Positions 62,128-63,516 of a DNA stretch of 64,000 bases are shown here, one piece after another. A model generated the notes under the pieces. It did no database searches. It had not been told where the DNA came from and was given only the letters and a program-made list of their open reading frames with translations. The DNA is from Kiritimatiellia bacterium. GTDB lineage: Bacteria > Verrucomicrobiota > Kiritimatiellia > UBA8416 > JAWODU01. A program made the position numbers and the translations under genes. The first letter of the stretch is position 1. Each line of letters opens with the position of its first letter. The DNA lies in contig JAWODU010000119.1 of the NCBI GenBank assembly GCA_046483125.1, positions 1,584 through 65,583 of the forward strand, read 5' to 3'.

Positions 62128-63516
62128 CTACTCCAGCTTCCCGATCATATAGAAATCATCTTCGGGGCGGTCGTCGCCTTTTCCGTCCATGATCATTTCA
62201 CATCCGTCCAGCGTCTCTTCGGTTTTCACGTATTCGCCCTTTTTGCCCACGTACGATTCGGCCACAAACATGGGTTGCGTCATAAAATACTGCAGTTTCC
62301 GCGCCCTTTCATAGAGGGTCCGGTCCGCTTTCGACAGTTCATCCAGGCCGATAACCGCGACGATGCGTTTTAATTCGTCGTATTTCGTAAGGATCCTCAA
62401 TAGTTCCTGTGAAACATCGAAATGCCTCTGGCCTACTATAGAAGCGTCAAGATTCGAACATGAAGACGCCAGAGGATCGATTGCGGGATACAGGCCGAGC
62501 TGGGTTCTTTCACGTGACAGCACCATTACAGCGTCGAGATAACTGAAAATCGCGACCACAGCCGGGTCAGTCAGATCGTCGGCCGGCACATACACGGCCT
62601 CAAACGCCGAAATCGAGCCCTTGATCCTTTCGTGAACGTCACCCACTTCGGAACTCAACGTGGGCTGATAACCCGTTTCCGAAGGCGTTCTTCCCAGCAG
62701 TGTGGAAATCTCCGCGCCCGCCTGCACGAACCGGAATATGTTATCCATAAAAAGCAGTACTTCGCGGCCCTTGCTCTGCAGATATTCGGCAAGGGTAATA
62801 CCCGTGAGTATCACGTTAAACCTCGCCCCGGGCGGTTCGTCCATCTGACCGAAGGCCATCATTATCTTCTCCAGAATCCCCGCCTGCTCGAATTCGTAGT
62901 ACAGCTCGTTGCCTTCTCGGATACGCTCGCCTATACCCGTAAAAACACACGCGCCTTCGTGTTCTTCAACAATGTTGTGGATCAGTTCCATTATGAGCAC
63001 TGTTTTCCCGCAGCCGGCTCCGCCGATGACACCGGTCTTGCTTCCGCGAACGACGGGAAAGAGAAGATCCACGATCTTGATGCCGGTCTCCACAACTTCG
63101 GCTTTTCCGGCGTCCTCTCCGACATCCATGGCCACCCGTGAGACGTCCTTGTGTATGGGAGATCTCTGTTCCGTCTCTACAGGCCCTTTCCCGTCCACGG
63201 GTTCGCCCATAACGTTGACTATACGCCCGAACAACTCATCGCCCACCGGAATTGTAAGCATGTGGCCGGTCGAGGTCGTTACCGCGTTGCGCTGGAGGTT
63301 CAGCGTTGAGGAAAGGGACACGCATCTGGCGATATTGCCTTCCAGGTGTTCCGCGACCAGCAGGGTCACGTCGCGCTTGTCGAATGTTCTCACCATTACG
63401 GTTTCATGCAGATCGGGCATATCGGCCACATCATGGAACAGCACGTCCACTACCGGCCCCTGCACGGCCAGAACCTTGCCTTTTTTCAGTGTCTTTTCTT
63501 CTGTTTCAACTGCCAT
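62128..63516 (-). CDS. F1-ATPase beta-subunit paralog (solitary; no atpC/atpG neighbours)
   Basis: Full-length AtpD match with beta-barrel N-terminus and C-terminal helical domain. Walker A reads GGAGCGKT (Cys in place of Val). The DELSEED loop reads DELSKAD. Start at MAVETEEK. Confidence 0.8.

Follow-up and report, generated by a model that had tools for sequence, protein, structure and literature searches.

In mycoplasmas, F1-like modules made of alpha, beta, gamma and epsilon subunits occur beside the housekeeping enzyme and lack a normal Fo part (PMC12994834, PMC3369863, PMC11864180). Two of these, the Type 2 enzyme (G1-ATPase, gliding) and the Type 3 enzyme (F1-like X0, MIB-MIP), are genetically linked to, and needed for, the surface system that they energise, and both have been described as mycoplasma-specific (PMC12994834). 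Here, a comparable association was found in a stretch of 64 kb (the window, considered at its full length) from a Kiritimatiellia metagenome-assembled genome (MAG), in which the gene at positions 62128-63516, minus strand, specifies a catalytic beta subunit belonging to a separate and divergent clade of F-type ATPases. This gene is the 3' member of an alpha/epsilon/c/b-delta/gamma/beta operon that is complete in relatives and cut by the window edge; it is invariably followed by gspE and gspF, two genes of the type II secretion system (T2SS), and the locus has no gene for subunit a.

Type 2 and Type 3 mycoplasma enzymes represent the nearest precedent in kind for this clade. In contrast to them, the clade operon retains genes for the c subunit and for a b-delta protein, its hosts are diderm bacteria of the Planctomycetes-Verrucomicrobia-Chlamydiae (PVC) group or the Omnitrophota, and its partner is a T2SS-like system. 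Judged from sequence comparison, the chances are about even that the complex works as a rotary module that hydrolyses ATP on behalf of this system and not as the ATP synthase of the cell.

A divergent F-type beta subunit and its operon

The 462-aa product of the open reading frame (ORF), as translated from the window, is 100% identical to an NCBI protein of a Kiritimatiellia MAG named "F0F1 ATP synthase subunit beta". It reached 561.2 bits with the NCBIfam model TIGR01039 (atpD; cut-off 462.85), which covered residues 12-462, and contained three domains recognised by Pfam (the alpha/beta barrel of the N-terminus, the nucleotide-binding domain and a C-terminal domain); solved F1 beta chains aligned with it end to end at about 480 bits. 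An earlier note on this DNA had described a full-length AtpD homologue with GGAGCGKT as Walker A and DELSKAD in place of DELSEED, a description borne out by the profile match and by the motifs themselves (GGAGCGKT in the P-loop; DELSKADR in the DELSEED loop). The catalytic set is kept, including the P-loop lysine, the Glu and Arg of GERIREGN, the Walker B Asp of FMDNIFRF, and YVPADD.

Homologous loci (numbered with the prefix L) were collected by scanning one genome per species, which yielded 80 loci onto which the proteins of L004, from the related Kiritimatiellae genome GCA_028716365.1, were mapped. Gene calls were read with precomputed Pfam matches for L081 (the same genome as L004), L082 (GCA_030745755.1) and L083. 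A phylogeny against housekeeping AtpD, as suggested in the earlier note, placed the window's beta and its relatives in a separate clade, monophyletic in the neighbour-joining tree. In a trimmed alignment these proteins are only 46-48% identical to canonical AtpD (maximum 54%), whereas canonical betas of different phyla share a mean of 70% with each other and never less than 60%. The P-loop of the clade reads GGAGCGKT or an A-C/A-L variant, and the fifth position of DELSEED is K or R (DELSK/R-x-D); the canonical F-type betas in the comparison all have GGAGVGKT together with a DELSEED-like loop that is acidic. GER-x-REGN, Walker B and YVPADD-x-TDPA are intact. The altered Walker A and DELSEED motifs of the window's beta are signatures of the whole clade, which extends over Kiritimatiellia, Lentisphaerota/Victivallales and Omnitrophota-like genomes.

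Assignment to a described family of specialised F1-related ATPases was considered and rejected in three cases. The N-ATPases (atpDCQRBEFAG) also form a second divergent F-type operon beside another ATP synthase, with beta at one end, but they carry subunit a, AtpQ, AtpR and an epsilon gene after beta, none of which was seen in the clade operon; the window's beta scored 503.9 bits with TIGR03305, under the cut-off of 752. Scores were also insufficient with the models for the mycoplasma F1-like betas, namely NF045858 (MMOB1670; 418.4 bits for a cut-off of 850) and NF045934 (MSC_0618 beta; 388.7 for 570). The FliI/SctN type III ATPases offer a functional analogy, since an F1-related ATPase with gamma-like (FliJ) and b/delta-like (FliH) partners there serves a secretion machine. 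The beta subunit reached some 180-185 bits with their models (cut-offs 380-620) and, unlike FliI/SctN, the clade has genes for a true alpha/beta heterohexamer, a c-ring and epsilon, and a T2SS partner already equipped with GspE.

Upstream of beta, an 88-aa ORF (63725-63991) had been taken in the earlier note for a product of unknown function standing in the place of atpG, with no other F-ATPase gene flanking beta. This ORF is the C-terminal third of gamma (atpG), and the operon goes on past base 64000. The assignment follows from three observations: the frame is open, without a stop before the window edge at 64000 and with the three codons ahead of the listed GTG (aaa ctc atc) in frame; the product is 74% identical to residues 211-287 of the 310-aa L004 gamma, itself matched by PF00231 (E 3.8e-25) and by solved gamma chains; and it matches positions 208-274 of the 285-position PF00231 (ATP-synt) profile. 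Likewise, the suggestion that a spacer occupies the position of atpC presumed the canonical gene order; in this operon type the epsilon gene lies upstream, between alpha and c, which explains the lack of an atpC after beta.

The earlier proposal of a moonlighting or regulatory paralog, or of a split operon, thus survives in part: "solitary" and scattered do not apply, and the idea of a non-standard beta tied to gsp genes holds up in view of the clade motifs and of the linkage, the lack of a nearby subunit-a gene and the V-type enzymes of relatives described below. That beta acts alone, as a solitary or regulatory paralog, is a view encouraged only by the curtailed window, and it is scarcely credible with gamma directly upstream in the window itself and with a full alpha/epsilon/c/b-delta/gamma/beta operon in every relative whose sequence reaches far enough.

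Subunit composition in relatives and the search for subunit a

Based on their gene order, the relatives show two arrangements. In loci labelled as Kiritimatiellia, Lentisphaerota, Victivallales or Verrucomicrobiota, genes for a giant secreted protein and for a conserved hypothetical protein, hereafter unk454, precede alpha1, alpha2, epsilon, c, b-delta, gamma and beta, and these are followed by gspE, gspF, gspG, two minor pseudopilin genes, gspK, and genes for a PilM-PilN fusion, a single-transmembrane (TM) protein of about 195 aa and a MORN-repeat protein. Loci labelled as Omnitrophota or Planctomycetia have one alpha and sometimes a second c-like gene, and some are ordered epsilon-c-b/delta-alpha-gamma-beta. 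Alpha, beta, gamma, the N-terminal domain of epsilon, c and b/delta are all homologous to their counterparts in canonical F1Fo enzymes (atpBEFHAGDC). The clade nevertheless departs from the canonical type in the position and length of epsilon, in the fusion of b with delta, in its second alpha, in its c subunit and in the absence of a subunit-a gene, in addition to the beta motifs and the constant presence of gspE/F after beta.

Epsilon is short (75-108 aa; 75 aa in the L004-type operon), comprising the N-terminal domain only (PF02823) without the C-terminal one. The b-delta product (247 aa; PF00430 and PF00213) combines in one chain a TM helix at the N-terminus, a coiled coil and an OSCP domain at the C-terminus, an architecture shared with the mycobacterial b-delta protein. 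In mycobacterial operons, unlike that of the clade, subunit a is present, b also exists separately and epsilon is full-length. The second alpha occurs in tandem after alpha1 in all loci labelled as Kiritimatiellia, Lentisphaerota or Victivallales (L001-L026, L047, L050 and L051; 6135-7613 in L004), and in every one of them its arginine finger is replaced by Ile, SVSRVG becoming S-L/V-S-I-I/V-G; the single alpha of Omnitrophota-labelled loci keeps the Arg. The c subunit (71 aa) lacks the canonical GxGxGxG motif and has an RNPSAA loop. Its essential ion-binding carboxylate in helix 2, a Glu in most clade loci, is replaced by Gln or Met in six loci (L005, 3694-3909; L017, 2519-2734; L044; L045; L046; L052), in each of which it is the sole c gene of the operon. 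The beta subunits of these six loci keep the Walker A lysine, ER-x-RE and the Walker B Asp, with flanking changes (REGF, FGDN/FADN). The c gene of the window's own genome lies outside the window, and these c data are those of relatives.

A profile iterated from canonical AtpB was used to search for subunit a. It found a match in all 23 canonical loci reaching far enough upstream, and none on either strand of 53 clade loci or of the 64-kb window, even at E<=10. PF00119 was likewise absent from the precomputed Pfam calls of L081-L083 over the 10 kb upstream of unk454, a region of unrelated genes on the other strand. Altogether, the range over which the search for a subunit-a gene was negative extends from about 16 kb on the upstream side, as covered by relatives, to 62 kb on the downstream side, as covered by the window. 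A subunit a hidden among the conserved neighbours was rejected as well: when all ORFs of the clade loci were clustered, GspF was the only conserved polytopic membrane protein, unk454 being bitopic.

These data bear directly on the main competing explanation, a conventional ion-translocating F1Fo ATPase or synthase with subunit a, and perhaps atpI, encoded elsewhere. As a variant, it may act as an ATP-driven H+ or Na+ pump in fermenters equipped with a V-type enzyme as well. Several features speak for such an enzyme. Beta and alpha1 both exceed the equivalog cut-offs of NCBIfam (530 bits for a cut-off of 484 in the case of alpha1 and atpA, alpha2 falling short by less than 1 bit), the catalytic residues of beta are all intact, c, b-delta, gamma and epsilon are all encoded, and c is very highly conserved with its carboxylate kept in most loci. 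Against these stand the absence of subunit a over the range searched, the Q/M replacement of the carboxylate in six single-c loci with a catalytically intact beta, and the loss of the arginine finger in alpha2. The rotor and stalk subunits are also far under their family cut-offs (epsilon 41 for 67, c 24 for 124, gamma 70 for 194; NF009961, "subunit B/delta", matches the C-terminus of b-delta at 44.6 for 328). A conventional enzyme remains a possible explanation with a real, if minority, share of the probability. It would account for the neighbouring gsp genes by co-regulation, for instance to provide membrane potential for secretion, or by inherited gene order.

Two conserved products lie upstream of alpha. 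The unk454 gene, encoding about 440 aa, directly precedes alpha and overlaps its start (L004, 3324-4688, P0121; homologues P0122-P0240). Its product, a two-TM periplasmic protein, carries a signal or TM segment at the N-terminus and a TM helix at the C-terminus, and is predicted to fold as two repeats of a beta-sandwich and a three-helix bundle (AlphaFold pLDDT 85), with no Pfam or NCBIfam family and no fold match in the PDB. In L039, the unk454 homologue bears a C-terminal GGDEF domain, and the GspE linked to it contains MshEN, a receptor domain for cyclic di-GMP. The L039 ORFs that seemed to fuse alpha with gamma (4050-6398) and beta with GspE (6358-9408) were dismissed as artefacts, being read through masked N runs. 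A giant secreted protein of 1100-3246 aa, devoid of TM helices, heads the neighbourhood in many loci (164-9904 in L081, where it contains Laminin_G_3; 46-3825 in L034; 45-3932 in L049) and could serve the system as a substrate or as a partner at the surface.

Conserved association with type II secretion genes

The earlier note had proposed that synteny be checked in relatives. Among clade loci in which 600 nt or more follow beta, gspE is the next gene on the same strand in 50 of 50, followed by gspF, compared with 0 of 24 canonical loci. The gamma-beta-gspE-gspF block stays the same even in loci that differ in the order of alpha, epsilon, c and b-delta. In a reciprocal sample of metagenome contigs, picked by similarity to the window's GspE and having at least 700 nt upstream of gspE, beta lies directly upstream in 54 of 71 loci and is inverted in one. 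The single interrupted junction seen (L107, 3139-5147) contains an insert of about 2 kb with a C5 DNA methyltransferase and a second gene, likely a restriction-modification cassette; the same methyltransferase insert precedes gspE in L105 (1-1769), where the contig is cut before any beta. Fourteen loci of this sample are unlinked, 12 of them with the most distant GspEs (47-49% identity).

Such a linkage, kept at 50 of 50 loci across phylum-level divergence and despite rearrangements of the atp part, also argues against a conventional F1Fo enzyme. It weighs equally on the scenario that the earlier note had named as fatal to its own proposal, in which beta belongs to the sole housekeeping ATP synthase and its neighbourhood is incidental. 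The name given by the Prokaryotic Genome Annotation Pipeline (PGAP), "F0F1 ATP synthase subunit beta", and the lack of a second ATPase gene in the 64-kb window are in keeping with this scenario. However, had the adjacency been incidental, it would not have persisted, with its short spacers, in all 50 loci from Kiritimatiellia, Lentisphaerota and Omnitrophota, and every point raised against a conventional F1Fo enzyme counts here too. Moreover, a V-type enzyme is given as the ATP synthase of the cultured Kiritimatiella glycovorans (PMC5148204), and V-type ATP synthases were reported for all Ace Lake Omnitrophota MAGs (PMC8542988), including Candidatus Aceula meridiana, whose MAG carries a clade locus (L038). 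We therefore consider the sole-housekeeping scenario improbable.

Downstream of beta, a T2SS gene set is gathered in one cluster (Table 1) comprising GspE, GspF, GspG, minor pseudopilins, GspK and an L/M-like protein, with PF21687, PF11612, PF07963, PF11104 and PF05137 among its Pfam families; no secretin (GspD) was recognised among the ORFs of the cluster that were scanned. The true start of one minor pseudopilin gene (57548-58252) is probably internal, because some 99 codons at the beginning of the listed ORF are a translation of (GTGCGAT)n repeats of the spacer. Farther on, 3' of the MORN-repeat gene, lie three ORFs in a row (233, 330 and 440 aa; 48992-52031, minus strand) without a Pfam family.

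Table 1. Features of the atp-gsp region in the window, listed in the direction of transcription
Feature	Coordinates	Strand	Evidence
Gamma gene, 3' end (last 91 codons and stop), cut at window edge	63725..64000	-	PF00231, homology
Gamma-beta spacer, 208 nt, with 6/12-nt (AATCTT, TCTTAATCTCAA) and 7-nt (CCTCCGT/TCCGTCA) tandem repeats	63517..63724		Repeat search
Beta subunit of divergent F-type ATPase, 462 aa	62128..63516	-	TIGR01039, Pfam, motif alignment
Beta-gspE spacer, 230 nt, with AAGGACC-type 7/14-nt repeats and inverted repeat	61898..62127		Repeat search
GspE-type secretion ATPase, 544 aa, MshEN and T2SSE, directly downstream of beta	60263..61897	-	L004 orthologue PF00437, PF05157
GspF platform protein, 401 aa	58951..60156	-	PF00482, E 3.8e-58
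GspG major pseudopilin, 138 aa	58230..58646	-	PF08334, PF07963
Minor pseudopilin, listed ORF 234 aa	57548..58252	-	N-methylation motif at residues 100-123
GspJ-like minor pseudopilin	56916..57614	-	Domain scan
GspK	55882..56919	-	PF21687
PilM-PilN fusion, GspL/M-like assembly protein	54253..55716	-	Domain scan
Conserved 189-aa single-TM protein, found in 33 loci	53687..54256	-	ORF clustering
MORN-repeat protein, last member of the conserved neighbourhood, found in 17 loci	52207..53580	-	ORF clustering

The spacers of the window's operon are themselves unusual. Those on either side of beta (208 and 230 nt) are long when compared with the beta-gspE spacers of clade loci, whose median is about 40 nt. 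The earlier note had pointed to a repeat-filled spacer of 230 nt beside beta and to repeats on both sides of the gene; the former proved to be the interval between beta and gspE, and tandem units (AATCTT, TCTTAATCCCAA, TCCGTCA, AAGGACC) indeed occupy both spacers. Nearly every spacer of the atp-gsp operon contains same-strand tandem repeats with periods of 6, 7, 12 or 14 nt, built from AATCTT/TCTTAATCCCAA, TCCGTCA, AAGGACC and GTGCGAT units (55748-55876, 57953-58069, 58835-58934, 60191-60236, 62077-62121 and 63554-63715; also about 21686-21750). The beta-gspE spacer further includes a hairpin resembling repetitive extragenic palindromic (REP) elements, with 32-nt arms (about 61967-62044), and a 29-nt copy of its arm recurs in inverted orientation in the gspG-pseudopilin spacer (58078-58106). 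The RNA of this spacer is predicted to fold far better than shuffled controls (z = -4.3), and the search for an intrinsic terminator within it returned only a weak consensus match, within chance expectation. The structured spacer and the want of a convincing terminator would be compatible with co-transcription through structured intergenic RNA.

Proposed role of the complex and its implications

In the reading that we favour, that of an ATP-hydrolysing rotary module serving the T2SS-like system, ATP would be hydrolysed by the alpha/beta hexamer, as proposed because beta keeps every catalytic residue. Gamma, the N-terminal domain of epsilon and the c-ring would form the rotor, with b-delta holding the hexamer. 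With subunit a missing, the c-ring would serve as a membrane rotor or anchor in an ion-locked state and not as an ion turbine. Such a non-translocating ring fits the replacement of the c carboxylate by Gln in some lineages; Gln mimics a permanently protonated Glu, and the substitution may therefore be tolerated. Candidate targets of the rotor would include the GspF/GspL platform, unk454 and the giant surface protein. In established F1 biochemistry, the inhibitory C-terminal helices of epsilon contact DELSEED, and the loss of acidity in this loop would fit the loss of the epsilon C-terminal domain.

In its most complete form, the proposal is more tentative. The clade might add a fourth kind to the co-opted F-type rotary ATPases, the first to come from outside mycoplasmas; in it, an a-less assembly of alpha, a dead alpha', beta, gamma, a short epsilon, a c-ring and b-delta would use an ATP-turned, ion-locked c-ring to perform mechanical work for a T2SS-like pseudopilus together with unk454 and the giant surface protein, all encoded as one superoperon across Kiritimatiellia, Lentisphaerota and Omnitrophota.

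A number of observations weigh against a role in secretion. About 85% of clade loci keep the Glu of c helix 2, and no protein of the operon is more highly conserved than c (80-92% within Kiritimatiellia/Lentisphaerota), as would also suit a functional ion-binding ring; a normal ion-coupled enzyme needs both a c-ring and a peripheral stalk. A gene for subunit a may lie elsewhere in the genome, the search having covered the loci only, and split atp loci exist in other bacteria. The T2SS already has its ATPase in GspE, and no role is known in it for a second motor. A conserved adjacency speaks for co-inheritance and probably co-transcription, not for physical or functional coupling, and two loci (L097 and L098) have GspEs at 61-62% identity without atp genes. 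Finally, the reports of V-type ATP synthases concern relatives, not the window's genome, and F-type genes are unmentioned in both (PMC5148204, PMC8542988).

As a divergent F-type ATPase or a co-opted F1 motor, the complex may be new in its operon type and in its linkage to T2SS genes, both of which appear undescribed: a full-text literature search, most subscription journals being outside it, found no account for these phyla of atp genes linked to gsp genes or of an F-type operon without subunit a. The automatic label "F0F1 ATP synthase" may lead metabolic reconstructions either to credit these bacteria wrongly with an F-type ATP synthase or to drop the genes silently as incomplete, and the genes appear to have been dropped in this way in two published genome analyses (PMC5148204, PMC8542988).

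The interest of the operon rests mainly on whether subunit a is truly missing from these genomes. If so, the clade would represent a rotary F-type ATPase, widespread in environmental bacteria, that is no longer coupled to ions but retains its c-ring and peripheral stalk, and that has become wired to a secretion or pilus machine, offering a natural test case for the role of a c-ring without subunit a. It would add an unrecognised component to the T2SS-like systems of PVC and Omnitrophota bacteria and extend the reuse of the F1 motor beyond the mycoplasmas.

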